A stretch of DNA of 36,254 nucleotides. Origin: a virus (lineage: Duplodnaviria > Heunggongvirae > Uroviricota > Caudoviricetes). Below the pieces are notes generated by a model. It was given only the letters and a program-made list of their open reading frames with translations, ran no database searches and was not told the origin of the DNA. Below are positions 1 through 28,320 of the stretch, piece by piece. The stretch lies in IMG/VR virus record IMGVR_UViG_2531839432_000012, one strand, 5' to 3'. Within the stretch, counting starts at the first letter, position 1; the number at the start of each line of letters is the position of its first letter. The translations under genes and the position numbers were made by a program.

Positions 1-981
1 CTAACGTCTTGCTTTTAACAATAACCAGATAAACACCGGCGCACCCAACGTTGCGGTGACCACGCCAATAGGCAGCTCTGCGGCAGCTAATGCCAGGCGC
101 GCTACAATATCGGCCAGCAGCAATGCGCTCGCCCCTGCCAGCGCGCAGCCGGGAAGTAATACGCGATGATCGGTTAAACCACACAGCCGGAGAATATGTG
201 GGATCACCAGACCAATAAAGCCGATAGCACCCGCCAGCGCCACACTGACGCCAACCATCCAGCCGGTCGCTGCCACCAGCACATTGCGCCAGAACCACAG
301 GGGTAAACCCAGTTGCCGCGCCGAGATCTCGCCAAGTGCTAACATATTCATCGGCCTGGACTGACAACAGATCCACAACAACACGGGGATCAATGCCAGC
401 ATCAGCCAGCTTTGCCGCCAGTCTACGCCGCCAAAACCGCCCATCATCCAGTACATCAGCTGACGCAAATCAACTGAGGTGGAAAAGTAGATAGCCCACG
501 TCATTAGTGCGCTACAGATAATCCCTAATGCAACGCCAGCCAGCAATAACCGACTGGTCGAAAGATGACGACGGGCGAAACGTAAGAGTATTAAAGTGAT
601 GATAAGCGCGCCAGCAATCGCACACAGCCCTAGCGCCCAGTTGGGGAGTTGCCCTTGCCCAAGTAATACCGCGGCGATAAGCCCCACGCCTGCGCCGTTA
701 GAGACGCCAAGTAGTCCAGGTTCTGCCAGAGGATTTTCAAACAACGCCTGCATTACAGCGCCGGATATAGCCAGCGCCGCACCAACCAGCAATACAGCCA
801 GCGTACGTGGCAGGCGAATTTGCCAGACGAACAGTTCGCCACGAGGAGTAAACCAGTCACCTGGCGAGATCCATTGTTCACCGGCGCAAAGGCTTAAGAG
901 AAGCGCCAGCAGCATCAAAACTGACAGGCATAATAACCAGCGAATATTTTGTCGCTGTTGTTGGCGGGCAAGTGTCAGCAT
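1..981 (-). CDS. btuC: Vitamin B12 ABC transporter permease BtuC (complete, 326 aa; stop codon at 1..3)
   Basis: Full-length ORF; translation is a polytopic membrane permease matching remembered E. coli BtuC essentially end to end ([17 protein letters not shown]...LLKARR). Recognition from memory, not a search. Confidence 0.9.
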
Positions 982-1039
982 GGTATCCGTTCTGCTGAAG
1001 TGTCATGGCGTTGATTTTACGGTGACTCTTCGACAGTGA

Positions 1040-1064
1040 AAAGAAAAAAGGCCGCAGAGCGGCC
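1040..1064 (-). terminator. Rho-independent terminator for leftward transcripts (stem GGCCGC/GCGGCC, loop AGA, followed on the minus strand by a U-run)
   Basis: Seen in sequence: aaaagaaaaaaGGCCGCagaGCGGCC on the plus strand; lies between the end of the 1174..1728 gene and the btuC start. Confidence 0.5.
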
Positions 1065-1173
1065 ATAAACACAAGCAAAAATCAATAAGTTAGATAATTA
1101 TCAAAGACTTACAGACACACAAAAACACAGCCAACCACAACAAATAACAGGGATGTGGTCAATTTGTGGATCA

Positions 1174-1728
1174 TCAGCCAACAAATTTAGCAACAAATAC
1201 AGCAACCGCCGCCGTGAAAATGGTTGTGCATACTGGCACAATAATGCCACTCCAACGCCACTTCGTATTATCATCAACCTTGTCAACCCGCCGATTCATC
1301 TCATCCATAATCTTGTCAAAGCGTTTATCCATCGCTTCGGTAAGCTCACCCTTCAGGCTGTTAATGTCTGATTTGAGCTGCTCTTTCAGGTGAGCTGTAT
1401 CAGATTTAAGCTCACCTTTCAGATTCGCAATATCGCATTTAAGATCACCTTTCAGATGAGCAATGTCTGCTTTGAGCTCACCTTTCACCTCACCAACATC
1501 AGCTTTGGTTGAGAGGTTTGTAGTGCGTTCAGTAAGCGTCGCAAGGTCGTTTCTTGTTAGCGATAAATCACCTTCGAGTCGCTCAATTCGCCTTTCAAGT
1601 TTATCTGACATTCCGCCTCCACTACTGCCGCCATCGCCGCCATGATAAAGCACATCACGCTCAGAATGCGACATACTACCTGCTGAATTACCGAAAAGGT
1701 TTCTTGCTGCATTACCCATTTTCACCAT
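1174..1728 (-). CDS. Hypothetical tail-anchored coiled-coil protein: Gly-rich N-terminus, 11-residue tandem repeats, C-terminal transmembrane helix; start may be ATG at 1719 or 1611 rather than 1728
   Basis: ORF of 184 aa; repeats KGELKADIAHL/KGDLKCDIANL/KGELKSDTAHL/KEQLKSDINSL; hydrophobic C-terminus IIVPVCTTIFTAAVAVFVAKFVG; the ATG at 1719 overlaps the stop of the upstream gene (ATGGGTAA). Confidence 0.6.
   Translation of the reverse strand: MVKMGNAARNLFGNSAGSMSHSERDVLYHGGDGGSSGGGMSDKLERRIERLEGDLSLTRNDLATLTERTTNLSTKADVGEVKGELKADIAHLKGDLKCDIANLKGELKSDTAHLKEQLKSDINSLKGELTEAMDKRFDKIMDEMNRRVDKVDDNTKWRWSGIIVPVCTTIFTAAVAVFVAKFVG
1339..1503. repeat. About five tandem 33-bp in-frame repeats encoding the 11-residue coiled-coil repeats of the 1174..1728 protein
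   Basis: Seen in sequence: repeated units of the form atttaagctcacctttcagat...gcaat with minor substitutions. Confidence 0.6.
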
Positions 1729-3241: not shown

Positions 3242-3553
3242 TTAGCCGGGCTGTGTGCCAGTCTTGCGGGGTTTTTGAGAAGGCGATGTGCTTTTTGGCC
3301 CATCAGGGGAGAGAGACGGACTGATCTGCCCAGCAGCCTCATTTGTTTCGTTACTCATCAACCACGTGGTGTATTTTTTAAAGTTCGGATGCATTGTGAT
3401 TTTCAGTAAAACCTCCGTCCCCACACCTCTAATACCAGTCTCATATTGCTTAACTGTACCAACCGCAATACCTATTGAATCCGCGAACTTTGCCTGGCTA
3501 AGTCCCTCAGATTCTCGAATTGCTTTTAGCTTCTTTGATATCTCTATTGACAT
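3242..3553 (-). CDS. Immunity repressor (P2 C-like), small HTH protein (start taken at MSIEISKKLKAIRESEGLSQ)
   Basis: HTH-like segment LSQAKFADSIGIAVGTVKQYETG; divergent from the early operon as in P2 int-C / cox. Confidence 0.7.
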   Translation of the reverse strand: MSIEISKKLKAIRESEGLSQAKFADSIGIAVGTVKQYETGIRGVGTEVLLKITMHPNFKKYTTWLMSNETNEAAGQISPSLSPDGPKSTSPSQKPRKTGTQPG

Positions 3554-3648
3554 GGTGTGCACCTGAATACTATATTGGTTATCAGTTGAGTACCACTTGA
3601 CGCCACAAAAAGCCACAAATAGCACCAGATTGAATAGGTTATCACATC
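3554..3648. promoter_or_regulatory. Divergent early control region (Pc/Pe-equivalent) with candidate operator direct repeats
   Basis: Seen in sequence: GCCACAAA at 3602..3609 and 3612..3619 (10-bp periodicity); GGTTATCA at 3577..3584 and 3637..3644; TTGACG -35-like hexamer at 3596..3601. Confidence 0.4.
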
Positions 3649-3927
3649 ATGGCAAAAGTCCTGAACACATACGAACAAGCGGATTTTGAGCGTTTGGCGG
3701 CGTTCTACCCATACCGTGATGAGCATGGGTTACCTGTGCTTGAAGAAAGCCTGGAAGATTACGCGAAACGCACGAATCAAAGCATTCTTGCGGTAAGAAG
3801 GCAGGCCGACAGATCAGTAATCCCCGTCACCCAAGAAGGAAGAAACACAAAACGCAAAGTAAACCTTTTCGCAATATTCCTGAAAACCATCAGGAGCGAA
3901 GAGAAATACGTGCAGATGACAAAATAA
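3649..3927 (+). CDS. First early-operon gene, Cox/Apl-like position (putative excisionase / early regulator)
   Basis: 92-aa ORF at the position of P2 cox; assignment by synteny only. Confidence 0.4.
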   Translation: MAKVLNTYEQADFERLAAFYPYRDEHGLPVLEESLEDYAKRTNQSILAVRRQADRSVIPVTQEGRNTKRKVNLFAIFLKTIRSEEKYVQMTK

Positions 3928-3941
3928 CGAGGTGTCATTTT

Positions 3942-4280
3942 ATGCTGAAGCAACGCCGTAATTTTCGTACCGGAACAGAACGCCACGCTAACCGTTTCAC
4001 TACCAGTGCATCACGCAGCAACATCCGCTACAGCCTGAGTGATACACACGCAACGCCGGATGGCTACCCAGTAAAACAAATCGGCGAGCACGCCTGGCTG
4101 ATTGAGAAAGCTGGAATCGTGATCCACAAATGCCCACGCAATCCGTTTACCGGAAACCGCATTTTTGCATTGAGCTGTGGCGACAATCAGTTCGGGCAGG
4201 ATTTCACATTATACGAAGCACTTCGCACGGTTGATCGTCTGCTTCGCGGGCAAAGTTTTATTAAACAGGCTGATTTATAA
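3942..4280 (+). CDS. Hypothetical early protein (112 aa)
   Basis: ORF in the early operon; no recognisable motif. Confidence 0.5.
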   Translation: MLKQRRNFRTGTERHANRFTTSASRSNIRYSLSDTHATPDGYPVKQIGEHAWLIEKAGIVIHKCPRNPFTGNRIFALSCGDNQFGQDFTLYEALRTVDRLLRGQSFIKQADL

Positions 4281-4290
4281 CAGGTGCTTT

Positions 4291-4578
4291 ATGACCAAAG
4301 ACCATGCACAAGGGGTATTTATCCGTTTTATTGATTTTCGCGGTGAACTGTTATTACGTGCATCCGCTATTGACGGAGTGACTCCGGCGGGTAAAAACGG
4401 AGCCGACGAAGCCACTTACGTTTATCTGAACGGCACGCGACTGCTTGTGGAACTTCCGTACCAGACCGTACGAGAAATCATTAGCGAAGCTGAAAAGGCA
4501 CGCCAGGTTAATGGCGATGAACCCTATATCGAAATTATTTGTATGGATTCAGAAGCTGAAATACAGAAAGCAGATTAA
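4291..4578 (+). CDS. Hypothetical early protein (95 aa; start at ATG 4291 inside the longer ORF 4177..4578)
   Basis: In-frame ATG after the upstream stop; same operon. Confidence 0.5.
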   Translation: MTKDHAQGVFIRFIDFRGELLLRASAIDGVTPAGKNGADEATYVYLNGTRLLVELPYQTVREIISEAEKARQVNGDEPYIEIICMDSEAEIQKAD

Positions 4579-4589
4579 AGGGCGTTGTG

Positions 4590-4832
4590 ATGGGTAAAGA
4601 ATATAAAACTCTCATTAACAAAGCACTTGAGCGTTTTTATTTTCGCTTAAGTGCATCAGGCGCTCATGCTGAACGTGCGGCCCGTGACTCATTGACCAGA
4701 GCAATCCGAAGTCTGTATGACGTGGCTTTTTACGCTGATGATCTGGATGCACTTAACGAACTTTCCGAGCTGATCTGTGCCGCAGAATGCGGGGAACATA
4801 TTGAACCGTATAAGCTGGGAAATATCGCATGA
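4590..4832 (+). CDS. Hypothetical early protein (80 aa)
   Basis: ORF with adjacent GTG/ATG start; same operon. Confidence 0.5.
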   Translation: MGKEYKTLINKALERFYFRLSASGAHAERAARDSLTRAIRSLYDVAFYADDLDALNELSELICAAECGEHIEPYKLGNIA

Positions 4833-4966
4833 GTATATTTATTTCATGGCTTGTTCTGATTATTTCGGTGGACTGCGCCATTGGGATTATGCGAATTATT
4901 AATTCAGTGAAAAAGATCGAGCGTTTTTCTCTGATGAATAACGATACAAATAAAACATCAAATTAA
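4829..4966 (+). CDS. Possible small hydrophobic membrane peptide (45 aa, MSIFISWLVLIISVDCAIGIMRIINSVKKIERFSLMNNDTNKTSN), start overlapping the upstream stop (ATGA)
   Basis: Hand-translated from the sequence; below the ORF-track size cutoff; one predicted TM helix followed by a polar tail; AT-rich. Confidence 0.3.
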   Translation: MSIFISWLVLIISVDCAIGIMRIINSVKKIERFSLMNNDTNKTSN

Positions 4967-5033
4967 ATAAGAAAACGTGAAAACCATCCGTATTAACGGA
5001 GGTATTCGCACACGTAAATAACGGAGATATAAA

Positions 5034-5450
5034 ATGAACGCAAAAGAAGAAGGCATTATCGACACATTAAAAAAAATATCAAAAGCGGAAGATGAAATGG
5101 CTAAAGATGCCGTGAAGCGTAGCCAACATATGGCAGCACTTCACGCACTGACCATTGCAAAAATCACCGCTGACGCAGCCAAAATTATTGAGGAACAGGG
5201 CAAAAAAATCGACACTCTTAAAACACAGTCAACAGTTGCAGCCATGAATCCGCCCAGCATTGGACGCCGCATTCACATTCTTGGTTCGGCAATAATGACG
5301 CAATACACCATTATTGCCGAACTGCACGGCAAATACCTGATAACGCCTTACCACACAAAAGAGTCAGAGCTTCTGACAAATCTCCGCCTGATAGAACTCT
5401 CTCAAGCTGTATTCATTGATGACGCGCAACGTGCCGTATTTAACGCATAG
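5034..5450 (+). CDS. Hypothetical protein (138 aa) preceded by an AT-rich ~200-bp spacer
   Basis: ORF with AGGAG-like RBS region (acggagatataaaATG). Confidence 0.55.
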   Translation: MNAKEEGIIDTLKKISKAEDEMAKDAVKRSQHMAALHALTIAKITADAAKIIEEQGKKIDTLKTQSTVAAMNPPSIGRRIHILGSAIMTQYTIIAELHGKYLITPYHTKESELLTNLRLIELSQAVFIDDAQRAVFNA

Positions 5451-5473
5451 GGTTACTGGACAAAGGGGGCGCA

Positions 5474-5677
5474 ATGGCAATTAAGCATTTTCCCGTCGTT
5501 CGCTTTACCTCCAGAGGGCGCGAATACGAGGTCGACGAACGCCTGATTACCACTATCGACAAACATCGTTCGGAAAAGGATGCACACCACATCTACCTCA
5601 CTGACGGCACTTATTTCTGCGCCACCAACGTGGCGCGGGTGAATCTTATCCGACAGGTACAGGAGCCACGCAGATGA
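5474..5677 (+). CDS. Hypothetical protein (67 aa)
   Basis: ORF with RBS GGGGG upstream; tight spacing with neighbours. Confidence 0.5.
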   Translation: MAIKHFPVVRFTSRGREYEVDERLITTIDKHRSEKDAHHIYLTDGTYFCATNVARVNLIRQVQEPRR

Positions 5678-5940
5678 CCATTCTGGACTACATCGCTACC
5701 CATCCGGGTTGTAGCGGCGGAGAAATCGCCGCAGCACTGAATACTCCAACCACAGCCATTAATGCTGAGTTACGCCAACTTTGGCGCGGCGGCTTAGTCA
5801 TCAGAACAAACCGCAGCACAGGTGGTCGCGCTCGCAAAACTGGAGGCCAGGCTTCTTACCACGTAAACCCGATGCCGTTCGGGTGTAGCAATCCACTTAC
5901 TCACATGTTTAACCAGCTACTGAAGGAAGCCAGAGCATGA
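5674..5940 (+). CDS. Hypothetical protein (88 aa), possibly a small winged-helix DNA-binding protein
   Basis: Start overlaps the upstream stop (ATGA); HTH guess from the composition of the translation only. Confidence 0.45.
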   Translation: MTILDYIATHPGCSGGEIAAALNTPTTAINAELRQLWRGGLVIRTNRSTGGRARKTGGQASYHVNPMPFGCSNPLTHMFNQLLKEARA

Positions 5941-6236
5941 GCACCATCAACCACCAGAAGCTACGCGAACTGGCATTTACCCTGCAACGAATGGCAACGC
6001 CTCAAAAATTACTGGCATTTCGCGCAATGCTCTCGCCGTCTGCTGTGCTGGCACTGCTGGATGAGCTGGAGCACGCCAGAACCACGGCTCCTGCCATTCG
6101 CCTGACGCTCCATCATGAAATCGCTGATTTCTGCGCGACGTTGGAGGCGCCGGGCGAACCGGAAACGCCGGAAGCAATACAGCAAGAGCTGCTGCAACGC
6201 ATTGACAAGGTTTTTGATTTTTTTCTGAACCAGTAA
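5937..6236 (+). CDS. Hypothetical protein (99 aa)
   Basis: Start overlaps the upstream stop (ATGA); same operon. Confidence 0.5.
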   Translation: MSTINHQKLRELAFTLQRMATPQKLLAFRAMLSPSAVLALLDELEHARTTAPAIRLTLHHEIADFCATLEAPGEPETPEAIQQELLQRIDKVFDFFLNQ

Positions 6237-6558
6237 GAAACCAGAGCATGCACACACAAAAAAACCGCTTGCCACGCCGCAATCAGTCAGGTTACATTTC
6301 CGCTGCACCTCATAAAACGGGTGCCGGGATTTCCACCCCGCTGACTAGCAAAGCGCACAACCGCGCCAGCGGTTTTTTTGTGCGTACCGTATCGCCACGT
6401 CTTTTTCGCACACGAATTATGGTGGGGCGTATGGGGCCGACTTCGGTCGGGCCGGGTTCTTTGCTAGCCGGTTGTGGAAACCCTGTACGTCTCACCACCC
6501 CGAGTTTTCCACCTCTGGATGGTGAGTTTTTAAAACTTACTAGCAAAGAGGCCACACC
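6237..6558 (+). other. Structured non-coding region inside the early operon with three terminator-like hairpins and ACTAGCAAAG-type repeats; candidate attenuator or small RNA
   Basis: Seen in sequence: long-range inverted repeat AAAAAAACCGCTTG (about 6259..6272) / CAGCGGTTTTTTT (about 6367..6380); GC hairpin GGCCGAC-TTCG-GTCGGGCC near 6433..6452; hairpin CTCACCA...TGGTGAG followed by TTTTT near 6502..6535. Confidence 0.3.
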
Positions 6559-6789
6559 ATGGCAAACCGCAAACAACAGCGCGCATACGCTGCGCGTCGT
6601 CACATCCAGACTGAAATCAACCGTAGACTTTTCCGCGCATCACGCGTCGCGCAAATCATGCACATCAATATGCTGCATGAGCGCAGCCACGCGCTATCGA
6701 ACATCTATTCCGCCTCTGTTTTCAGCTATCTGGCGGATGATCTGCGCGAGCTGCAACAACTCTTCCAGCAGCAAAACAAACTCCATTAA
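6559..6789 (+). CDS. Hypothetical protein (76 aa)
   Basis: ORF with RBS (agaggccacaccATG). Confidence 0.45.
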   Translation: MANRKQQRAYAARRHIQTEINRRLFRASRVAQIMHINMLHERSHALSNIYSASVFSYLADDLRELQQLFQQQNKLH

Positions 6790-6861
6790 TTCCTGTTCCG
6801 GGCCTTTCCTGCACCTTGCGGCGGGAGGCCTTCGCACATCTGTAGTAAAGAGAATTGCAGC

Positions 6862-7251
6862 ATGATTGACGCTCATGACTTCACAAGATGGGTGCGCACA
6901 CAGGACACCCGTCTGGCTCCCGTTCTTCAGGGATTATTTGATCTCTACATCCGTGGTCGTGACAACAGAGCACGCACCACAAAACCGGAGAATGCAGACC
7001 CCCTTTATTTCACAGTAGACGACTGCTACCGCGTGGACTTCACACCACACGGGCTGGCGTTGCACTGCCTGACACCACACGGAGAATCACTGCTGGCGTA
7101 TTACGACTCCCCGGCCTCCGTATTTGCGGCAATGCTGGCGCATCGCACTGCTGGCGGGTGTGCCTCGCTGAGTGAATACACCGCTGAATTTAACCGCCTT
7201 TCTGCCCTCTTCTCGCAGGAGTGGCAGCGCGTGACGGGATACCAGCCATGA
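6862..7251 (+). CDS. Hypothetical early protein (129 aa) immediately upstream of the replication gene
   Basis: ORF; its stop overlaps the A start (ATGA). Confidence 0.5.
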   Translation: MIDAHDFTRWVRTQDTRLAPVLQGLFDLYIRGRDNRARTTKPENADPLYFTVDDCYRVDFTPHGLALHCLTPHGESLLAYYDSPASVFAAMLAHRTAGGCASLSEYTAEFNRLSALFSQEWQRVTGYQP

Positions 7252-10088
7252 GTGAGTTTGCATGGAGCTGGAATGAACCACGGCCAGCCATTGATCCGGC
7301 CAGATTTACGGAGCACAGGCAGGAAACTGAAACCGACCTGCAACGCGCCATCCGTTACTACCTTGAGGCAGACAAAAAGGCTCTGGAAGAACAGGAAGCG
7401 AAGGAGGAAGCCTTTTTCGCACAATCCACCGTGGGTAAAAAACTCATGGCATCCCTTGAGGAAGCCGGACAGCGTGAAAAGCTGGCACAAAGCATCATCA
7501 GCAAGCGTCAGGCAACAGAACAAGACCCGGTGGCCCGTGCTTTTGCCACACTGAAGGTGCTTCCCGTTTATCTGCGTGAACCTCTGAGCCGCCACCTCTC
7601 TTTCCTGCGCAAAAAACAGGAAGCCGATCGCCAGAAAGGCAAAAAGAGCTGGCAGGCTGAACGCTACGCGCGCGGAACCCTGCGCAAAATATTCCAACGT
7701 CTGGACCGCACCGATCACCGCTGGCTGACACCGGGTTATCGCTCCCTTGCCGGACGCGAACGCCTGGACGATTTGCTTTACCTACCGCAGCTCAACAAAC
7801 ACCAGATACAGACGCTGGCCACCATGACGGCGGCGATGTTCAGCAGCACCTTCGAAAAACTCTGCGATGGCTTTGGCGCGACTGATGGCGAACTGACCAT
7901 GGATGTAACGCTGAAGGCGTATCAGATGCTGGCCCGCATGGCGTTACACCTGCACGCCATGCCTCCACATTATGACGCACTGACAACAGACAAAAACCGG
8001 AGGAACGAACCGGACACGGAGCTGCTGCCGGGCGCAATCCTTCGCCTGACCTGTGCGGAATGGTGGAAACGCAAACTGTGGCTGTTACGTTGCGAGTGGA
8101 GAGAAGAACAACTCCGCGCCGCCTGTCTGGTTTCCAGAAAAACATCACCCTATCTGAGCCAGGACGCGTTAAGCGAGTTTCGCGCACAGCGCGACAAAAC
8201 ACGCGATTTCCTGAAAAGTTTCATGCTGGAAAATGAAGACGGGTTTACGATTGATCTCGAGACGGTGTATTACGCGGGAGTAAGTAACCCGGTTCACCGT
8301 AAGGCAGAAATGATGGCCACAATGAAGGGGCTGGAACTTCTGGCCGAAGCCCGTGGCGACAAAGCGGTGTTTCTGACTGTCACCTGCCCGTCAAAATACC
8401 ACGCCACAACAGAGAACGGTCATCCGAATCCCAAATGGAACGGGGCCACCATGCGCGACTCCAGCGATTACCTGGTTAACACGTTTTTTGCAGCGGTCCG
8501 CAAGAAACTGAACCGCGATGGCCTGCGCTGGTATGGCATCCGCACGGTGGAGCCTCACCATGACGGCACCGTGCACTGGCATATGATGGTCTTTGCTCAT
8601 CCGGAAGAAATCGACAGCATTGTGGCCATCACCCGCGATATTGCCATTCAGGAAGACCGCCACGAGCTGGGCGATGACATAACTCCGCGTTTTAAGGCGG
8701 AGTACGTAGACGGCTCAAAAGGCACACCAACCAGCTATATCGCGACCTACATCGGAAAAAACCTGGACAGCCGCGCCGTGGATGGCATCGACCCGAAAAC
8801 GGGCAAGCCACGCGTTGAGCACGAAACCGGAAAATCAATGGCAGAGAGCGTGGAACGCGCCATCGGCTGGGGGCGCCTTCACCGGGTCCGCCAGTTCCAG
8901 TTCTTTGGTATCCCCTCCCGTCAGGTGTGGCGTGAACTGCGTCGCCTTGCCAGCCAGATGGCACGCAACCCGGAAGGCCCGCAACGGCTGAAGGATGACG
9001 CAATGGACTCGGTTCTTGCTGCCGCTGATGCCGGATGTTTTGCCACCTACATAGAGAAACAGGGCGGCGTACTTGTTCCACGCAAAGACTACCTGATTCG
9101 CACCGCCTACGACCTCGCAGATGAGCTGAACGATTACGGCGAACAGAGCGTACAGATTTACGGGATCTGGTCACCACTCATCGGGGAATCCTCCCGTGTG
9201 TGCACGCACCCGGATAACTGGAAGCTGGTAAGACGTAAACCTGAAGCAGAAGACATCGCCCGCGAAAATGGTTTTGACCTTCAGGGCGGCCCTGCCGCCC
9301 CTTGGACTCGTGGCAATAACTGTCCCCGTGTACAGGAAACGGACAACAACGGGACAGAACAGCCGGAAGAACGGCCAGCACCGTGGCCGCAGCTCCCTGA
9401 CGGCGTTGAAGTGAACGTATGGATGCGCTCACTGAAACGGCACGAACGCCGGGCGCTGATGCGTTCGCTTCGTGACAAACAGGCAAAAAACAGCAGTGAT
9501 GAAATGCAGAGCTGGACACAGAGCCGCAAACAGCAGCGGCCTTTGCCTGATAACCACGAATTACTCGCTAAAGAATGGCGGGAATCTGCCGAATCTCTCG
9601 GCCTGCATATCGGTGAACAGCAGATGCAGCACCTGTTACGGGGCGGCAGCCTGTACGTTGACGGCAGCATCATTGCACCGCAGGGATTTGAAATTGTACG
9701 CAAACCGGATACCCGCCCGGACAGCCGAATCACGCAGTTCTGGCAGCGCCTGAGCCGTAATCACGGCGTAAGCAGCACGGAGATCCGCCATAACCCGGTC
9801 GCCAGCTATCTGGAACAGCTGGGGGCATCAGCCCCCGAAGCCGCCGCACGCCTGGCATCCACACTTCAGCAGGACCAGAACACCATGAAAACCCCCGTTA
9901 CCGTGCTTTCTGACATGCTGCGCGCCATCCGTGACGCAGAGCACGCACAGAGAATCAGTGAAACCACTGAACGCGCCCACCGCAAAGCAGACCTGCTGCG
10001 GGGTGGCTTGACCCGTGGGAACAAAAAACAGACAGAAACGGGATCCACGAATCCCGTAAATGACCAAAAAACGCGCAGCGATATATGA
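7248..10088 (+). CDS. A: Replication initiation protein (P2 gpA-like rolling-circle replication endonuclease), 946 aa; start taken at MSEFAWSW
   Basis: Very large early ORF at the position of P2 A after the early small genes; conserved-looking core (HxH-type segment VHWHMMVF, YIATYIGKN); identification by size, position and motifs, not a search. Confidence 0.75.
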   Translation: MSEFAWSWNEPRPAIDPARFTEHRQETETDLQRAIRYYLEADKKALEEQEAKEEAFFAQSTVGKKLMASLEEAGQREKLAQSIISKRQATEQDPVARAFATLKVLPVYLREPLSRHLSFLRKKQEADRQKGKKSWQAERYARGTLRKIFQRLDRTDHRWLTPGYRSLAGRERLDDLLYLPQLNKHQIQTLATMTAAMFSSTFEKLCDGFGATDGELTMDVTLKAYQMLARMALHLHAMPPHYDALTTDKNRRNEPDTELLPGAILRLTCAEWWKRKLWLLRCEWREEQLRAACLVSRKTSPYLSQDALSEFRAQRDKTRDFLKSFMLENEDGFTIDLETVYYAGVSNPVHRKAEMMATMKGLELLAEARGDKAVFLTVTCPSKYHATTENGHPNPKWNGATMRDSSDYLVNTFFAAVRKKLNRDGLRWYGIRTVEPHHDGTVHWHMMVFAHPEEIDSIVAITRDIAIQEDRHELGDDITPRFKAEYVDGSKGTPTSYIATYIGKNLDSRAVDGIDPKTGKPRVEHETGKSMAESVERAIGWGRLHRVRQFQFFGIPSRQVWRELRRLASQMARNPEGPQRLKDDAMDSVLAAADAGCFATYIEKQGGVLVPRKDYLIRTAYDLADELNDYGEQSVQIYGIWSPLIGESSRVCTHPDNWKLVRRKPEAEDIARENGFDLQGGPAAPWTRGNNCPRVQETDNNGTEQPEERPAPWPQLPDGVEVNVWMRSLKRHERRALMRSLRDKQAKNSSDEMQSWTQSRKQQRPLPDNHELLAKEWRESAESLGLHIGEQQMQHLLRGGSLYVDGSIIAPQGFEIVRKPDTRPDSRITQFWQRLSRNHGVSSTEIRHNPVASYLEQLGASAPEAAARLASTLQQDQNTMKTPVTVLSDMLRAIRDAEHAQRISETTERAHRKADLLRGGLTRGNKKQTETGSTNPVNDQKTRSDI

Positions 10089-10137
10089 AGCGCGCACAAA
10101 ACAGGCAAAAACGGGATTTCAGAATCCCGTAAACGAT
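10022..10137. repeat. Two ~40-bp direct repeats, each containing a hairpin ACGGGAT-N6-ATCCCGT, flanking a possible promoter; candidate parC-like centromere/operator
   Basis: Seen in sequence: caaaaaacagacagaaACGGGATccacgaATCCCGTaaatga (10022..10063) and cacaaaacaggcaaaaACGGGATttcagaATCCCGTaaacga (10096..10137); TATAT-containing spacer between them; the first repeat overlaps the A 3' end. Confidence 0.4.
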
Positions 10138-10164
10138 TAATTAATCAACATAAGGAAAAGCGAC

Positions 10165-11124
10165 ATGAAAATTTGTATCGACGACGGCTCCACCAACATC
10201 AAGCTGGCATGGACTGAGAACGGCGAACGCCGCAACGCCATCAGCCCGAACAGCTTCAAGTCGGAATGGTCTGCGCCGTTCGGTGGCACGCAGCCCGCGA
10301 ACTATATGCTTGATGGCGTGCGCTATGGTTTTGATCCGGTCAGCGATCGCTTTGTCCAGACGACCGACACGCAATACCAATACAGAGATGTGAATGTCAT
10401 TGCCATTCATCACGCGCTGGTCAAATCAGGCATCACGCCACAGGAGGTGGATGTGGTTGTCACCCTGCCACTGAGCGAGTATTTCGACACAAACGCACAG
10501 CCGGACATGGCCAACATCAACCGCAAAAAAGCGAACGTTATGCGCCCGGTGGAGTACCAGAACGGCGAAGCATTCACTATCCGTAACGTGCGGGTTATGC
10601 CTGAATCCATTCCGGCTGGCTTTAAGGCACTGGCTGACATGAGTCCGTTTGAATCCCTGCTGATTGTGGATTTGGGCGGAACCACGCTGGATGTGGCAAA
10701 GGTTCAGGGGCAACTGGCAGGTATCAGCCAGGTGTTTTGCGATCCACACGTAGGCGTTTCTCTGATGGCCGATGCCGTACTGTCGGTGATGGCCACTAAC
10801 GGTATGCGCACCAGTCACCACATCGCCAATACCATTATCGAACATCGCCATGATGAAGCCTGGCTGCGCCAGCACATCCACAATGACGCGCATTACGCCA
10901 GCCTGATGGCGGTTATTCGTGAAAAGGAAGAAACACTGAAACAACGCGTGATCCGCGCGCTGGCGGGTTTTTCGGGTTACGGTCGGGTGATGGTTGTCGG
11001 TGGCGGGGCGGAGATTGTGGCACCCGCTATCCGCGAAGCCTGCGGAGTTAATGCGACTTTCATCGCGGACGGGGTGCCACAGTTTGCTCTGGTTAATGGG
11101 CTGTACGCAATGGACAAGGAGTAA
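10165..11124 (+). CDS. parM: Actin-like segregation ATPase, ParM/StbA family
   Basis: Translation matches remembered plasmid R1 ParM over its length, including IDDGSTNIKL, VMPESIPAG, DLGGTTLD, GGGAE; good RBS. Confidence 0.85.
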   Translation: MKICIDDGSTNIKLAWTENGERRNAISPNSFKSEWSAPFGGTQPANYMLDGVRYGFDPVSDRFVQTTDTQYQYRDVNVIAIHHALVKSGITPQEVDVVVTLPLSEYFDTNAQPDMANINRKKANVMRPVEYQNGEAFTIRNVRVMPESIPAGFKALADMSPFESLLIVDLGGTTLDVAKVQGQLAGISQVFCDPHVGVSLMADAVLSVMATNGMRTSHHIANTIIEHRHDEAWLRQHIHNDAHYASLMAVIREKEETLKQRVIRALAGFSGYGRVMVVGGGAEIVAPAIREACGVNATFIADGVPQFALVNGLYAMDKE

Positions 11125-11128
11125 ACCA

Positions 11129-11440
11129 ATGACGACACCAACCAGACGGATAAGTTTCTATCTGAAGCCCGCCGCCGTCAAGAACGAAGGCGAAGCATGC
11201 GCCTGGCTGGACAGCCTTACACCAGAAGCCCGCAAAAGCGGCCAACGCGTGGCTTTTCTGGCCGGGCTGGCACTTCTGAAAATGAATCCGGCAGAGGCTT
11301 ACCGACTGGCTGCATGGGCTGATGATGAGGCGTTATCAGTGACACAAACCAGGACAGAACGCCCCGCGTCACAGCCAGTATCAACCGCACAGATAACCAG
11401 TCAGATGGCCGGAAATATCCGGGCGTTATTTCCCGAATAA
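11129..11440 (+). CDS. parR: ParR/StbB-like centromere-binding adaptor (start at ATG 11129, not 10994)
   Basis: N-terminal ISFYLKPAAV...LDSLTPEARKSGQRVAFLAGLAL resembles the remembered ParR ribbon-helix-helix N-terminus; RBS AAGGAG 7 nt upstream; immediately downstream of parM. Confidence 0.65.
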   Translation: MTTPTRRISFYLKPAAVKNEGEACAWLDSLTPEARKSGQRVAFLAGLALLKMNPAEAYRLAAWADDEALSVTQTRTERPASQPVSTAQITSQMAGNIRALFPE

Positions 11441-11445
11441 CACAA

Positions 11446-11469
11446 CATCAGGGCGCATCCGCCCTGATG
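11446..11469 (+). terminator. Strong hairpin (10-bp stem CATCAGGGCG / CGCCCTGATG, loop CATC) after parR; weak U-tract
   Basis: Seen in sequence. Confidence 0.35.
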
Positions 11470-11503
11470 ACTTTAACCCGGGAACATAAACAAGGGGGAC
11501 ACA

Positions 11504-11836
11504 ATGCAACACATTGACAGAGAAAAAGCGCAGCGACTGATTGAGCGGATGGAAGCGCTGGCGAAAGAAGAAAATGTCAACATCCAAAAAATAGCTGAAT
11601 GTGGCCAGATAGTTCTTCGTCGTGAAAAAGACCTCAAACAACTGATGTCTGGCGAAACCAGCAAAACATGGACTTCAGGCGAGGAGACGGTTTATTGCAG
11701 TTTCTGCAATAAATCCCAGCACGAAGTCACAAAGGTGATTGCCGGACCGTCTGTTTACATCTGCAATGAGTGCGTGGATTTGTGCAATGAAATTATCAGG
11801 AAAGAAGTGACAGACAAAAAGGAAAAAAACGCATGA
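11504..11836 (+). CDS. ClpX-type C4 zinc-finger domain protein (110 aa), first gene of a five-gene coupled operon
   Basis: C-terminal half [37 protein letters not shown] closely resembles the N-terminal zinc-binding domain of ClpX; RBS GGGGGA upstream. Confidence 0.7.
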
Positions 11837-12168
11837 ACAGAAAACAAAAACAAGAGTTGAAATACTTTTTATGTAAAGAAATTGCCAGGCTTGAAGATGC
11901 AGAATCACAATCATCAGAAATTCCGTTCGGAATGGATATCAACGACGCCCGTATACTCCAGGCATACCGCATAGCTCAGGCTGCACTACAGGCAAAACCG
12001 TCAGATGGACTGGTTAGAGCAGTACGTTTCTATGAACTGGTAAAGCGTGAGAATCCGCCAGCCGAAACCGGAGCATGGAAAGACGCTGTTGACTGGGTGC
12101 TCAAAGAGGCTTGCCATGCTGTAAACATTGGTATCAAGGGAGGGGGATATGGCAACCAACAACCGTAA
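11833..12168 (+). CDS. Hypothetical protein (111 aa)
   Basis: Start overlaps the upstream stop (ATGA). Confidence 0.5.
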
Positions 12169-12343
12169 AGCAAAGATTCTGTTAGTTCGTAGAAACGCTC
12201 CTGGCGTCTGGCAGTGGGTGAGACTCAGCAACCGACGGATGGGGTTGATGAAATATTACGGGATGATGGATTGTGGTTTTTGCAAAAAGCCCAGCGCGGC
12301 GCAAAACCGCTGGAAAAACCACTTGCGCACTAAAGGAGAGTGA
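12149..12343 (+). CDS. Hypothetical basic protein (64 aa; start at ATG 12149 with RBS AGGGAGGGGG)
   Basis: In-frame ATG preceded by a strong RBS; overlaps the end of the previous gene. Confidence 0.45.
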   Translation: MATNNRKAKILLVRRNAPGVWQWVRLSNRRMGLMKYYGMMDCGFCKKPSAAQNRWKNHLRTKGE

Positions 12344-12344
12344 T

Positions 12345-12554
12345 ATGGCTATCGCTGCAAGTTACACCATGCATCTCTATTGTGATTGCCTCCAGTGTAC
12401 AGATGGCAAATATAAGTCGCCAGACTTCGGTGAGTATATAGGTACGTCATGGGCTGGCTGTGCAAAAGAGGCGCGCAAGGATGGCTGGCGAATAAGCAAA
12501 GACAAAACGCGTGCTTTTGCGCCCGGGCATAAAGTTTTGAGGATTAACAAATGA
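12345..12554 (+). CDS. Hypothetical Cys-rich protein (69 aa; CDCLQC motif)
   Basis: ATG with RBS AAGGAGAG; start overlaps the previous stop. Confidence 0.5.
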   Translation: MAIAASYTMHLYCDCLQCTDGKYKSPDFGEYIGTSWAGCAKEARKDGWRISKDKTRAFAPGHKVLRINK

Positions 12555-12811
12555 CCACTTTAACCGACAAAGAACTGATTAAAGAAATCAAAGAGCGCAT
12601 AGGTAGCCTGGACGTTCGAGACAATATTGAACGCCGTGCTTATGAAATTGCACTGGCATCGCTGGAAGCAGAGCCAGTAGCATGGATGCATGTAAATAAC
12701 GGCATCGGAATACCAGCAATAACAAGGAGTAAAGATGTTGCAGAGAGTTGGTTATCAAAAGGCTGGTATGTCCAACCCTTACATCTAGCCCAGCCTGCAT
12801 CAAAGCTATAG
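12551..12811 (+). CDS. Hypothetical protein (86 aa), last gene of the operon
   Basis: Start overlaps the previous stop (ATGA); followed by a terminator. Confidence 0.5.
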   Translation: MTTLTDKELIKEIKERIGSLDVRDNIERRAYEIALASLEAEPVAWMHVNNGIGIPAITRSKDVAESWLSKGWYVQPLHLAQPASKL

Positions 12812-12820
12812 AAATGAGCC

Positions 12821-12850
12821 AAACGCCCTCTTCCAGGGCGTTTATTTCAA
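12821..12850 (+). terminator. Rho-independent terminator (AAACGCCCT-cttcc-AGGGCGTTT + TATTTCA)
   Basis: Seen in sequence directly after the stop at 12811. Confidence 0.55.
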
Positions 12851-13248
12851 TGCACAATAGCGCACAAATTTGCACAATTTTTTTGAACGACTTTTTGCCC
12901 TTCCGGCCCGCGTGGCGGCTGGATCCGTCAAGGATCCGTGCGTGCACAAAAAAACGCGCTTTTTCTACGCGCAGGTGACGGGGGAACAGCCCGCGTTTCA
13001 GGGGGTAAATAGCACTCCCTGAACGATGTCGCAGCGACACAACAGAATGGCTGTATCGCTCACGCTGAGCGTGAAAAAGACGTAAGGGGTTCTGATTTGA
13101 TGGGATGAAAGGTAAGGCCGTCAAAATCGCACTGAGGCGGCGAGAAAATGCAGTCAGCGCGGTGGGATTGTGTAAGAGTCTGGCCGTCGATGATAGCGAT
13201 AAGTCGGAAGACGTCGTGAAATTATCTGATTGATACGGGAGCTGGAGA

Positions 13249-13277
13249 GCCGGGGCATAAATTTTTTATGCCCCGGC
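13249..13277. other. Perfect 29-bp palindrome GCCGGGGCATAAATTTTTTATGCCCCGGC (hairpin or protein-binding site) inside a 565-bp non-coding region
   Basis: Seen in sequence. Confidence 0.4.
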
Positions 13278-13376
13278 GAAGCAGCAGACAAGCGAAGCGC
13301 GTCAGTGATGCAGCACCTTGCCGACCACACTTCATAAGTGCAAAATACGAGCAAAGAAATCAATGGAGGCTGTTTT

Positions 13377-13901
13377 ATGGTCATTAATTACAAGCAGTTA
13401 CGAGAAAAACGAGAGCAGGTAAAGGAAAGTTTTCGCCGCAATGAAGATCTGACCCCGCTTGTACACCTTGCCCAGGGAATTGTTGATGCTTATGAAATCT
13501 CTCTGGAGCTGCCATCACAGACATGGACGGATAGCGATGGTAATCGCCAGCATTACGTTTCATGCGGACTGGAAACAACTGAAGGGGTTCGCAGAATGCC
13601 TTTATCTCAGATTCCTGCCGCTACCCCCAAAGCAAGGGGCGGCAATGATGAGCGAAAACTGATTTTCAGCATTGAGACAGTGGTTGACGACACACCTGGC
13701 GAAGTCGCGTTCGTGCATACTCCTCTTTCGATCGCAATGTATAACGATGAAATACAGGTTCGCGTTAATAATAATATCGTGCCACTTAAAGAAGGTAATT
13801 CACCATACACCACCGTTTGTGAAGCCATCCAATATTACGTTCTCTCTGAAATTGATAATCTCAAGCCTGACGGCACCCAGAAAATGGTTCAACTCTGGTA
13901 A
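13377..13901 (+). CDS. Hypothetical protein (174 aa; start at ATG 13377 with RBS GGAGG)
   Basis: ORF convergent with the portal gene; no recognisable motif. Confidence 0.55.
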   Translation: MVINYKQLREKREQVKESFRRNEDLTPLVHLAQGIVDAYEISLELPSQTWTDSDGNRQHYVSCGLETTEGVRRMPLSQIPAATPKARGGNDERKLIFSIETVVDDTPGEVAFVHTPLSIAMYNDEIQVRVNNNIVPLKEGNSPYTTVCEAIQYYVLSEIDNLKPDGTQKMVQLW

Positions 13902-13907
13902 AAAGGA

Positions 13908-13932
13908 CAGCCCCATCACGGGGCTGTTTTTT
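13908..13932. terminator. Bidirectional terminator-like hairpin (CAGCCCCATCACGGGGCTG + TTTTTT) between the convergent 13377..13901 gene and portal gene Q
   Basis: Seen in sequence; overlaps the last codons of Q. Confidence 0.5.
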
Positions 13933-14962
13933 CATCAAGAAGAGCATAAGAATTAAAACGGATCACCTCTTCACCAAGCCAGTCATTGATGTGCTTCATG
14001 GCCTCCATGACAGGCATCAGCTCGTTAATTGCGTAAACCCGCGCTGCCTTCTCCACATCACCAAACGCACTTTTTTCGCCCGGCATCGCCCCCATCAGTT
14101 GCGGCGGAACGCGGTGCGAAGCCAGCACATCATCACGGGATGCCGCCTTAACATTCATGAACTCATCCTTTGCGGTGATCTGCTGGAACGGCAAAATTTG
14201 CACCCCCTCTTTGCCCCCGTTGGGCGCATGAATGAGCACGTTTTTAAACGCACCACCACCACGTGCCCCCTGTAGCGTTTCCTTCAGGGAGTCCATGCTT
14301 TCGCGGTTTACCTGCGCTGCACCGATGTAGATGATGCACCCGGCGTGGGATCCGTTGTCGTAGTACAGCTTTCTGAACATGTCCGCCGAATGAGACAGGC
14401 TGGCCGAGAGTAATGCGCCAAGATATTCCGGCATGCCGTAGATTTCCTGGTTAATATCCGGATTCATCAGGTGGCACACTTTGCCAGGGCGAAACTGAAA
14501 CGCGTCCTTGCCATCCTGTACATACCACCATGATTCAAGATCGCTTCCGCGTCGCATGTATTTCGCCAGGGCGTGCCGTAATTTAAGCGGTTCGCCGAGC
14601 ATATTGCTTCGAAGCTCAAGGAATGCGTTACCGAATACAAACCAGTCCAGCGCCAGCGCCGAGAAATCCTGCCGGGAAAGCAGCGGGGGCGGAATATAGC
14701 AACCGAGCAATACATTGCGCTTAAAGTAAAGCGCAGACTGATGCCAGGACGTTTGCCGGGCGGCTCTTGCCAGACCGTACCAGTCCACCGGGGTTTCATA
14801 CCACCGCCCGTTATCAGCACAGTACATATTGTCCAGCAAATCATGCCCGGTCAGGCGATAAGGACCATCAAATGTGAATGCACTGAGCGATGATTCTTTC
14901 CTGAGCGCATCAGCGAGATCAATGCGTGAACTCATGCGCACTTTTTTATTTTTTCTGCTCAT
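13916..14962 (-). CDS. Q: Portal protein (P2 gpQ-like)
   Basis: 348-aa ORF directly downstream of and overlapping the large terminase gene, divergent from the O-N-M-L operon as in P2; size matches gpQ. Confidence 0.8.
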   Translation of the reverse strand: MSRKNKKVRMSSRIDLADALRKESSLSAFTFDGPYRLTGHDLLDNMYCADNGRWYETPVDWYGLARAARQTSWHQSALYFKRNVLLGCYIPPPLLSRQDFSALALDWFVFGNAFLELRSNMLGEPLKLRHALAKYMRRGSDLESWWYVQDGKDAFQFRPGKVCHLMNPDINQEIYGMPEYLGALLSASLSHSADMFRKLYYDNGSHAGCIIYIGAAQVNRESMDSLKETLQGARGGGAFKNVLIHAPNGGKEGVQILPFQQITAKDEFMNVKAASRDDVLASHRVPPQLMGAMPGEKSAFGDVEKAARVYAINELMPVMEAMKHINDWLGEEVIRFNSYALLDEKTAP

Positions 14963-16713
14963 CAGAACTCCATAACCGTGAAACGCTCGTTTTCTCCTTC
15001 GCCGCCAATCGGTTCGTTAATGACAGCAAGCATGGTTGCCCACGCAAGGTCGCCGTGGCTGATCCCCCTCGCGCGGTCCGTTTCGTAAGTGATAAAGCCG
15101 CCCGGTGTTTTCACCTTACGCACGGCGTTAAAGGCCGCGACCAGCTCGCGTTCGGCGCGATCGTATTCCCACCGCCCGGCACGCATTATTTGCAGCATTT
15201 TCAGTACCAGCGACCGTTTTGATGACAGCGTGAAGGTGTACGGAATAGCAGCAGGGAAAAACCGTTTCACTATCTGATAAACAGCCTCCCCGTTCCCGCC
15301 CGTCACATCAATGCCGATGTGTTCCACGTTGTAGCGATACGTGAACTCTTCAATGACTCTGGCCTGTTCTTCAAACTCCAGCCCCTGAACGCGTCGCGTC
15401 TCCACCGTTCGAAAACGGCCACCAGGAACAGCCGGAGGAACCACCACGGACACAGCGCCGCTGTCGCCGTTGCCACTGCTGCCGTTTGCGTCATACCCAA
15501 TCCATACCGGACGATTTCCCATCGGGCGGGGAGCAAAAGGTTTCCAGTCTTTCCAGTCGTCGTATCCGTCAACGCCGCAGCCAATCAGGATATTCAGGTT
15601 AAATGCCGATTCCCCTTCGCGGACAAACTCACACATATAGAGATTGCGGAACTCGTCTTCGGTGTTTTCATCACGAATTTCATCAATATCGGTGTGTTTC
15701 CAGCCGTGATTAACCACATCTTCCAGCGTGACAATTTGCCGCCACGTCCGGTCGGGGCAGATAAGCCCGTTATGCAGCGTTTTCCAGTCCACAGAAAAAC
15801 GCTGGCGTTTATGCGCGGCCTTTTTCTCGTTCCAGCGGTCGCCGTTCCAGTAGACGTATGCCTCGTGCGTTTCGGTTGATGGCGTGGAGAAGTAGGTGCG
15901 CCGCAGTCCGCTGAGGGTTGCCATAGCGCCAGCCACCTTGCGCAGTTCAGCAAAGCGACTGACCCAGAAAAATTCATCAAAATAAAAATTGCCTGTGTAG
16001 GACTGTGCCGTCGCAGCAGAAGTACCGAGAAAATGCAGTTCTGCGCCGTTGGAGAGGATGATTTTATCGCCCCCTTTCAGCTCCACATCAACTTCAGCCG
16101 CGGCCTTCTGAATAATGCTTTTAAACTGGAACGCCTGACGACGCGACGCAGACAAAAAAATCTGGTTACGCTGGTAAGGTTGTGCCACATCGTCACGCAG
16201 CGCCATCAGCAGTGCTTCCTGTGCAAAATACCAGGTCGCCCCAATCTGTCGGGATTTCAGGATCATCCTGTTACGTATCCCGGCTTCACTGCAAAGGGTC
16301 AGGGAGTCAAACCAGCCCCGCTGATGCCACTCCAGCCTGCTGATGATTTTTTCCCGCAGTGCGGCAATCTGCTCCGGCGTGAAATGATTTTTAAGTTTTT
16401 TCGCCCGGCCTTTCTTTCCTGTGGCCGTCGCATCCGGCTGGCCATCATGCAGTTTTTTAAGCTGCCGGGTCAGCAGGTCTATTTCCTTGAAGTCACCACC
16501 TGTTTTATTCTGTTTTTCAGTAAGCTGGATGAGGCGCGCATCGATGGATTGCGTGACACGCTGCACGGGTGGCGTTTCATCCCACTGGTCGCGTTTTTTC
16601 CACGCATAAATCGTGTTCGGGTTTATTCCCATCAGACGTGATATTTCTGCGGGCGGATAACCCTGCCAGTAAAGTTGCCGCGCACGCTGGCGCACAAAAG
16701 CGTCCTGAATCAT
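14962..16713 (-). CDS. P: Terminase large (ATPase) subunit (P2 gpP-like)
   Basis: 583-aa ORF with N-terminal HTH-like segment (YWQGYPPAEISRLMGINPNTIYAWKKRD) and terminase-like core; P2 gene order. Confidence 0.85.
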   Translation of the reverse strand: MIQDAFVRQRARQLYWQGYPPAEISRLMGINPNTIYAWKKRDQWDETPPVQRVTQSIDARLIQLTEKQNKTGGDFKEIDLLTRQLKKLHDGQPDATATGKKGRAKKLKNHFTPEQIAALREKIISRLEWHQRGWFDSLTLCSEAGIRNRMILKSRQIGATWYFAQEALLMALRDDVAQPYQRNQIFLSASRRQAFQFKSIIQKAAAEVDVELKGGDKIILSNGAELHFLGTSAATAQSYTGNFYFDEFFWVSRFAELRKVAGAMATLSGLRRTYFSTPSTETHEAYVYWNGDRWNEKKAAHKRQRFSVDWKTLHNGLICPDRTWRQIVTLEDVVNHGWKHTDIDEIRDENTEDEFRNLYMCEFVREGESAFNLNILIGCGVDGYDDWKDWKPFAPRPMGNRPVWIGYDANGSSGNGDSGAVSVVVPPAVPGGRFRTVETRRVQGLEFEEQARVIEEFTYRYNVEHIGIDVTGGNGEAVYQIVKRFFPAAIPYTFTLSSKRSLVLKMLQIMRAGRWEYDRAERELVAAFNAVRKVKTPGGFITYETDRARGISHGDLAWATMLAVINEPIGGEGENERFTVMEF

Positions 16714-16867
16714 TGCTCCCCCTGAGTAATTACAGGAAGATTACCCGCGCGCGAAACCGTTCTCCTTAACCCCCTGTTCTGGCCGTTTTCTTACAACAAA
16801 AGCCCTTTGTATCAGCCTGTTACGCTTTGCCATCATGACTGAAGAACCAGTCAGAGGGGCAAAAACT

Positions 16868-17704: not shown

Positions 17705-17726
17705 TAAGACAAAGGAGCAAATTTTT

Positions 17727-18779: not shown

Positions 18780-18824
18780 TCACCTCACGGCGGGCATCAT
18801 GCCCGCCTGTAACGGAGAGAAAAA

Positions 18825-19625: not shown

Positions 19626-19727
19626 CGACTGACCCCGTCAGCGGGCGGCGTGCGCGGTGTTCCGGTTTGACTCCGTGACCGTTTACACCGCGCACCCACC
19701 GCCCGATTTTTTTCAGGAGTGAACCCC

Positions 19728-20222
19728 ATGAGTATGGTTGCCAGAACTGAACCCAGACCCGCAGAGGACGACATCACCGATACCGATGATGGCGATACCC
19801 GCATTTCAGCGGGTGCATTCTGGCCGGATATTGTGCTGCGCGAGCTGCGTCTGGCGGTACGACTGCCGGGCCGCGTGACCACCTCCCGCCTGCTACATAC
19901 TGCCACCGGGGCTGTGGCACACGTTACCCGCGAGCTGGAAGCATGGCAGCAGGAACAGCAGGCAGCTGGCCATCTGACGCTGGCCGATGTTCCGGCACCC
20001 GTAATTAACGGAGAAAGCGTCAATCTCTGGCACTGGCGCAATGCTGTTTATACCGCCACGCGCGCCCTGATTCTGGAGCGTTACCGCGATGCGGACACAA
20101 CGGATAAGGGCGACCGCCGGGCGGACGCACTGGATATACAGACATCGGATTTGTGGCGCGATGTGAGCTGGGCCATCTCTGACATTCTGCGCCGCCCGCG
20201 AATTTTTGCGGAGCTGTGCTGA
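19728..20222 (+). CDS. L: Head completion/stabilisation protein (P2 gpL-like); start at ATG 19728
   Basis: Position and size; RBS AGGAG 8 nt upstream. Confidence 0.7.
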   Translation: MSMVARTEPRPAEDDITDTDDGDTRISAGAFWPDIVLRELRLAVRLPGRVTTSRLLHTATGAVAHVTRELEAWQQEQQAAGHLTLADVPAPVINGESVNLWHWRNAVYTATRALILERYRDADTTDKGDRRADALDIQTSDLWRDVSWAISDILRRPRIFAELC

Positions 20223-20422: not shown

Positions 20423-20424
20423 CA

Positions 20425-23699: not shown

Positions 23700-23702
23700 A
23701 TC

Positions 23703-27361: not shown

Positions 27362-27365
27362 ATAC

Positions 27366-27813: not shown

Positions 27814-27819
27814 GTTAAA

Positions 27820-28314: not shown

Positions 28315-28320
28315 GACTCC

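Follow-up and report, generated by a model that had tools for sequence, protein, structure and literature searches.

The window analysed here is the whole 36,254-nt stretch of IMG/VR virus record IMGVR_UViG_2531839432_000012, and all coordinates below refer to it unless another record is named; its features are collected in Table 1. It is an IMG/VR provirus call cut at gene borders, with the host gene btuC at the left and the stop codon of a hok-type toxin gene at the right. The btuC copy finds a match of 95-100% identity in 5,426 of 5,426 complete E. coli genomes and is so annotated in the related records. Past a short host spacer and the junction discussed below lie two phage genes on the minus strand, a tyrosine integrase, a repressor and the early operon of a P2-like prophage, the body of which encodes replication protein A, ParM-like partition, portal, terminase, capsid, lysis, baseplate, tail fibre, sheath, tube and tape measure functions and D, along with several slots for variable cargo.

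Over window 3600..28500 (24.9 kb), about 96-97% nucleotide identity is seen with PhiR44_2, P88 and P884B11 across 75-83% of the interval; together with the collinearity, this puts the phage in the P88-like/Xuanwuvirus group, an assignment by similarity and gene order rather than by formal genus or species thresholds. No single complete RefSeq genome contains the whole window, the best match covering 92% of 11300..36254 at 98% identity, so that the prophage is best described as a mosaic of known modules. The window corresponds to the IMG/VR record UViG_2531839439_000018, which is likewise 36,254 nt long and agrees with it over the first 3,447 bases except at base 1287.

Table 1. Features of the window at the left junction, in the early region and at the right end (dot, no strand assigned)
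Feature	Position	Strand	Basis or remarks
btuC	1..981	minus	host gene, vitamin B12 ABC transporter permease; outside the prophage, taken into the provirus call
Host spacer, btuC start codon to core	982..1039	.	identical to the empty sites of strain 1428 and K-12
attL core, AAAGAAAAAAGGCCGCAGAGCGGCC, 25 bp	1040..1064	.	junction comparison with empty sites and lysogens
P' arm of attP, 109 bp	1065..1173	.	conserved in 46 attL junctions
Two IHF consensus sites (WATCAANNNNTTR)	1080..1111	+	AATCAATAAGTTA at 1080..1092, TATCAAAGACTTA at 1099..1111
Putative Int arm-type direct repeats	1154..1172	+	TGTGGTCA at 1154..1161, TGTGGATC at 1165..1172; starts 11 nt apart
Two-gene phage cassette	1174..2212	minus	inside the attL-attR interval in relatives
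ORF, coiled-coil protein with C-terminal hydrophobic tail	1174..1728	minus	cassette
ORF, 4-Cys zinc-ribbon protein, 166 aa	1712..2212	minus	cassette
Integrase, tyrosine recombinase, 325 aa	2215..3192	minus	Pfam; open frame reaches upstream to 3342
HTH repressor, position of the P2 C immunity gene	3242..3550	minus	Pfam HTH_3 and annotation in relatives
First ORF of early operon, cox/apl position	3649..3927	+	gene order as in P2
Prophage body, P2-like (P88/Xuanwuvirus type)	3928..35662	.	collinear with the annotated FRIK944 and SE11 prophages
Replication gene A	7221..10088		early operon; Pfam GPA
ogr/Delta-type late-gene activator	35663..35923	+	Pfam Ogr_Delta 5e-14
hok/gef-type toxin module, phage-carried	35924..36254	+	leader 35924..36113; 46-aa toxin gene 36114..36254

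The junction beside btuC

In K-12 MG1655, which has an empty site, btuC (1794172..1795152, minus strand) is followed by a spacer of 100 bp and then by ihfA (1795253..1795552, also minus), and strain 1428 has the same arrangement; the first-pass annotation was thus right that ihfA lies directly upstream of btuC in K-12. It had also proposed alignment to a prophage-free reference. The junction alignment, which took in empty sites (strain 1428 and K-12), the lysogens E2348/69, O157:H7 FRIK944 and SE11 and several IMG/VR contigs, identifies the 100-bp btuC-ihfA spacer as the empty site and window 1040..1064 as attL. In more than 5,000 E. coli genomes with an empty site, the match to the window ends at base 1064, the last base of the core, and nearly all of the matches listed from 5,426 complete genomes cover window 900..1064 only. 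Since the similarity to empty-site genomes stops at that base, it is phage DNA and not ihfA that comes after btuC, and the observation that a prophage cassette abuts btuC stands. The genes to the right of btuC are phage ORFs and an integrase, and native chromosomal genes are absent there.

The 25-bp core occurs once in the empty site (in K-12 it is single, at 1795211) and at both prophage ends in FRIK944, SE11 and one IMG/VR contig. In E2348/69, for which the ihfA side alone was fetched, the same 25 bp form the junction on that side. The limit towards ihfA is equally sharp: when a query running from ogr through hok, P arm and core into ihfA was used, the empty-site genomes matched from its position 856, which is the first core base. 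The core, its exact limits and the empty site can therefore be read directly from the alignments. On the minus strand the core consists of GGCCGCTCTGCGGCC followed by TTTTTTCTTT, which is the intrinsic terminator of ihfA, with its hairpin at 1064..1050 and its T-run at 1049..1040; a terminator scan flags exactly this position, which in the empty site is 18 nt downstream of the ihfA stop codon. As the core is the ihfA terminator and is duplicated by the phage, the phage targets that terminator and brings its own copy. No tRNA or tmRNA gene is found in the window and attB is the ihfA terminator, which sets the element apart from the class that targets tRNA or tmRNA genes.

We are thus confident that the region at 982..1173 is the attL of a temperate P2-like phage of the P88/Xuanwuvirus type, integrated site-specifically in the btuC-ihfA spacer. 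Such a phage would integrate by site-specific recombination at the 25-bp core within the 100-bp spacer, and the ihfA terminator, with its full hairpin and T-run, would be rebuilt at attR because the phage carries an identical copy of the core. At attL the 83 bp upstream of btuC are unchanged. They include a promoter-like site for btuC on the minus strand, found by consensus scan in 982..1039, with a -10 hexamer at 1019..1014 and a -35 hexamer at 1042..1037 that overlaps the edge of the core; this is a match to a consensus, which is no evidence of function. The effects on ihfA and btuC are predictions from the sequence. The core hairpin, lying 110 nt downstream of the integrase and cassette genes, could also serve to terminate their transcripts. 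IHF is a host factor used by integrases of this type, and it is a small point of interest that the phage targets the terminator of the IHF alpha gene while rebuilding that terminator and sparing the region upstream of btuC.

The right end of the prophage

A repeat search between 982..1173 and 35924..36254 gave a longest common word of 9 nt, a length reached or exceeded in 56 of 300 shuffles. A search of both strands with up to 8 mismatches showed no second copy of the 25-bp core in the window. The failure of the first reading to find a repeated core between the two ends is thus borne out, with a chance-level 9-mer the only common word and the true core single in the window, as is its view that the window could not by itself give the exact attL and attR: attR is outside it. 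The interval 35924..36113, after ogr, was a reasonable place to search, since the attP of P2 sits directly between ogr and int, and an attR located there that has diverged too far to be recognised would also account for the missing repeat. We regard this as barely conceivable. Besides the lack of any core copy with up to 8 mismatches and the chance nature of the 9-mer, a Hok/Gef toxin gene has its leader in this interval, phage records of the P88 type carry that gene as cargo, and in relatives the core is found 262-265 nt beyond the hok stop codon. As an attachment region it was rejected. The toxin assignment comes from Pfam (HOK_GEF, 4e-7) and from Hok/Gef or MokW-like annotations in genomes and phage records, and the stop codon of the gene is the window end; no Rfam match was obtained for the att region or the hok leader.

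The place of attR is seen in NCBI contig AQFI01000018.1 of GCA_000356725.1, a probable equivalent of the scaffold that the window comes from (IMG taxon 2531839439), which has 0 mismatches over 3,907 nt to window 32348..36254 and continues past that stretch with a P arm of 261 nt, the core, and then ihfA and pheT. Its attR core begins 262 nt past the window end, equivalent to window 36516..36540. In every related lysogen examined the attR core is 262-265 nt past the hok stop codon, with 261-264 nt of phage DNA between, and wherever an identical copy of the 221-aa cargo protein encoded before ogr is listed, the gene order is ogr, hok, ihfA, pheT (7 of 7 places). The window's own attR, placed by the identical contig and these relatives, would lie beyond the window end, with about 261 nt of P arm followed by AAAGAAAAAAGGCCGCAGAGCGGCC, TTTTTAGTTAGATCAGATTA and the end of ihfA. 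With attR some 260 bases outside, no repeat could be found within the window.

The first-pass annotation had left a choice between insertion of the element, or of a larger island including it, in the ihfA-btuC neighbourhood and replacement of that neighbourhood. Insertion was correct; replacement was not, as ihfA directly follows attR in all related lysogens. The larger island fails as well, the two ORFs beside btuC being inside the attL-attR interval and belonging to the phage. That the prophage is part of an island that has replaced ihfA, or that the neighbourhood has been rearranged, has in its favour only that ihfA is missing from the window, and we consider it highly improbable: all related lysogens examined have ihfA and pheT directly behind attR, some 300 nt past hok; the contig identical to the last 3.9 kb of the window has ihfA after its attR too; ihfA is present in 5,426 of 5,426 complete E. 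coli genomes; and on the btuC side the match to host sequence runs without a break as far as the core. The event is a simple insertion of an element of about 35.5 kb into the 100-bp btuC-ihfA spacer, with no host DNA replaced.

A further alternative is that the genome from which the window comes has a non-canonical right junction, produced by rearrangement, by hybridisation with another prophage, or by deletion of an attR so that the prophage is locked in. Variants of this kind do occur. In ETEC1738 (NZ_CP122768.1) and two IMG/VR contigs (L050 and L052), a phage of the same type is found inside a lambdoid prophage; in one IMG/VR contig attL and attR are only 12 kb apart; and the spacer of another strain holds an IS200C. 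For the window itself such a junction is nonetheless very unlikely, since its attL is the canonical btuC junction, the contig with 0 mismatches over the last 3,907 nt has a canonical attR with ihfA behind it, and 1 complete genome has the lambdoid junction versus 296 with the canonical one. Simple insertion with a canonical attR is retained below.

The point of insertion in the lambdoid prophage is between the small terminase gene and the lysis genes, at a site, catgAAAAAGGCCGCAGAGCGGCC, with 20 of the 25 core bases in common; in ETEC1738 the junctions are at 3860..3890 and 39900..39930 (coordinates in L057), and the unoccupied lambdoid site is found in strain TW10690 (L056, at about 20000). 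At the five positions that differ, the left junction retains the lambdoid bases and the right junction the phage bases. Because the junctions keep different versions, strand exchange can be assigned to the common 20 nt, equivalent to window 1045..1064, and the pattern is the one to be expected if an integrase recombined the phage into a secondary site, a case from nature that supports site-specific recombination. For L050 and L052, tandem integration of another, lambdoid element into the same attB was considered and rejected, since their "lambdoid arm" is internal sequence of a lambdoid prophage that another strain carries near ompW.

The remaining two of these variants are as follows. IMG/VR record UViG_3300014970_000032 (L028) has cores at 1916 and 13984, with attL and attR about 12 kb apart, and is presumably a deleted derivative of this prophage type. 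In strain 98228 (L055, NZ_CP173463.1, 6143..6890) the IS200C in the btuC-ihfA spacer has its start among the first bases of the core, which makes this terminator a target of an insertion sequence as well.

Attachment-site architecture, integrase and the adjoining cassette

Across 46 attL junctions the sequence is near-identical up to TGTGGATC, beyond which several different cassettes follow, and the putative arm repeats at 1154..1172 are kept across the junctions. Compared with SE11, the window matches up to 1174 and again from 2222. The two matches to the IHF consensus next to the core are the only ones on either strand of the whole 36-kb window, with about 0.02 expected per attP-length stretch. 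In relatives a third perfect match to WATCAANNNNTTR lies in the P arm, 4-16 nt before the core, so that three predicted IHF sites flank it. The same P arm carries TGTGGAC(A/G), which starts 56 nt before the core, and (A/C)GTGGAAC, which starts 45 nt before it, a spacing of 11 nt. The arm consensus of P2-type integrases has been given as tgTGGaCa (PMC3448106); the repeats of both arms fit it, as a P2-type Int/attP module should have them, and the 11-nt spacing is also seen in the attP of a P2 record. The direct repeat of the core at both prophage ends that belongs to such a module is likewise present, its second copy being the one in the identical contig.

The P' arm has two predicted IHF sites near the core, and its outer end carries the two arm repeats to which the N-terminal domain of the integrase would bind, with int about 1 kb further in behind the variable two-gene cassette; the other arm would supply paired arm repeats and one predicted IHF site before attR, ihfA and pheT are reached. 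The motifs themselves are observed directly; that Int and IHF bind them is predicted from their sequence and position. P2-like prophages located elsewhere in the chromosome have ogr and hok in common with the window and diverge from it 73 or 132 nt after hok, from which the site-specific P arm can be put at about 130 nt and the whole attP at about 265 bp. A reconstructed query running from hok through P arm, core and P' arm into the cassette matched phage records in the hok part only, and among the IMG/VR records, where two pattern scans gave 43 attL junctions and 7 attR or hybrid contigs, no free-phage or circular attP junction was found; the attP described here is thus a reconstruction from prophage ends.

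The integrase has both domains expected of the Int of a P2-type module, an N-terminal arm-binding domain (Pfam Int_N, 2e-28, 99 bits) and a C-terminal catalytic domain (Phage_integrase, 3e-20, 73 bits). A full-length alignment with P2 Int gives 48% identity and shows the HxLRH...Y box to be conserved; in FRIK944 and SE11 the annotation of this gene is likewise a phage integrase of 325 aa. Its best match among phage records is 54.6% identical, with none above 55%, which implies that no cultured phage shares this module. The ORF at the cox position is of suitable size, but Pfam and NCBIfam assign it to no family and its one match is a PHROG of unknown function; as no relation to P2 Cox is detectable, it is by position only that it becomes a candidate for the directionality factor of excision.

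The slot between the P' arm and int falls into five length classes (about 400, 680, 820, 920 and 1040 bp) across the 46 junctions. Every class except the shortest has the same two genes, one for a 4-Cys zinc-ribbon protein and one for a coiled-coil protein with a hydrophobic tail at its C-terminus. Pfam gives a CCDC90-like/DUF1640 match below threshold for the first ORF of the window's cassette and none for the second, and PHROGs places both in families of unknown function. PADLOC, Pfam and NCBIfam together returned nothing for the cassette beyond weak coiled-coil matches, on which no defence system can be named. Zinc-ribbon alleles from four loci (L005, L007, L010 and L019), carried by prophages that are otherwise near-identical, are only 21-33% identical to each other and have F..FL, CxxCG, CxxCG and W as their invariant elements. 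This divergence might reflect a fast-diversifying two-gene membrane module for superinfection exclusion or anti-phage defence rather than passive cargo, a tentative suggestion to which we attach rather little weight; if it is true, P2-like phages would have in this slot a third variable hotspot, directly beside the attachment site. Base 1287, where the window has C, is implied to be A in UViG_2531839439_000018 (L024) and in nine other loci with the same cassette that reach this position; the change is from Phe to Val in the coiled-coil protein.

Relatives, provirus boundaries and cargo

The site is already in the literature: the P2-like prophage PP_SE11-4 of E. coli SE11 (35.8 kb) is listed as lying "between btuC and ihfA", with a duplication of 25 nt (Oshima et al. 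2008, PMC2608844). Its published start is the first base of the attL core, and its published end is one base before the attR core derived independently here. It resembles the window in site, 25-nt duplication, gene order, the right end running from ogr through hok, P arm and core to ihfA, and the type of integrase (97.9% nucleotide identity in the int region), and differs in the alleles or cargo of the P' arm-int, A-Q and D-ogr slots and of the tail-fibre region. The junction from ogr through hok, P arm and core to ihfA is found in at least 296 of 5,426 complete E. coli genomes. The btuC/ihfA site, the 25-nt duplication and a P2-like user of it were thus tabulated in 2008 and concern at least one in twenty complete E. 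coli genomes; the att finding itself is fully explained and already known, with no room for novelty.

Phage P2 has in common with the window an arm-binding tyrosine integrase, paired arm repeats 11 nt apart, an IHF consensus beside the core, a core that overlaps a hairpin, and a site that is intergenic rather than in a tRNA gene. Its core and attB are different, however, and its attP fills the 273 bp between int and ogr, whereas the window has a cassette of about 1 kb between int and the P' arm, a hok module of about 0.45 kb between ogr and the P arm, and an ORF at the cox position unrelated to P2 Cox. P88, PhiR44_2 and Xuanwuvirus P884B11 (Peduoviridae) are like the window in the body and in having the hok module after ogr, but their similarity begins only near 3965, from which it follows that the integrase, repressor, cox-position ORF and att module have been swapped. 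The phage in the window is thus of the P88 type, with an integration and immunity module that differs from theirs and had been catalogued before.

The value of the window lies in curation: it is a provirus record in which host btuC is included and attR is missing. From such records btuC can be mistaken for an "auxiliary metabolic gene" carried by the phage, and the prophage for one devoid of att sites. Of the 43 IMG/VR provirus records that have this attL, about one in four takes in host btuC (loci L009, L012, L013, L020, L022, L024, L025, L027, L028 and L043), and some of these have further host DNA beyond the gene. In a 2026 survey of P2-like viruses, drawn largely from IMG/VR proviruses, "BtuC permease" is counted as a phage auxiliary metabolic gene (PMC13100340); this probably arose as an artefact of provirus boundaries at the integration site described here.

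Several other features of the prophage were noted in passing. In the early region, isrK (6305..6379) and C4 antisense RNA (6415..6502) give Rfam matches above the gathering score, within or beside an Ash-like ORF at 6248..6865, and form an RNA module of the immunity/antirepressor type. At 10165..11440 a ParM-type actin-like segregation gene (StbA_N 1e-82, ParM_N 1e-68) and a small partner gene are present in what is an integrating phage; related prophages have the same pair. The window differs from its closest relatives at 11441..13940, from the partition genes to the portal and including a protein with a ClpX-type zinc finger (11504..11836), and again at 25656..27770, the distal tail-fibre and fibre-assembly region; FRIK944 and SE11 have a DNA invertase in their distal tail-fibre region, and the window sequence at 25656..27770 is unlike theirs. 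The D-ogr interval (34667..35587) is a variable cargo slot, occupied in the window by an ORF at 34848..35513 that encodes the 221-aa protein mentioned above and has no family match; an exact-protein search with the longer 229-aa frame (34824..35513) gave no match, and the annotated start at 34848 gave matches. In SE11 the slot holds a 384-aa hypothetical protein (L005 34692..35846), and in ETEC1738 (L057 35398..38795) a four-gene His-Xaa-Ser (hxsDBCA) radical-SAM system.
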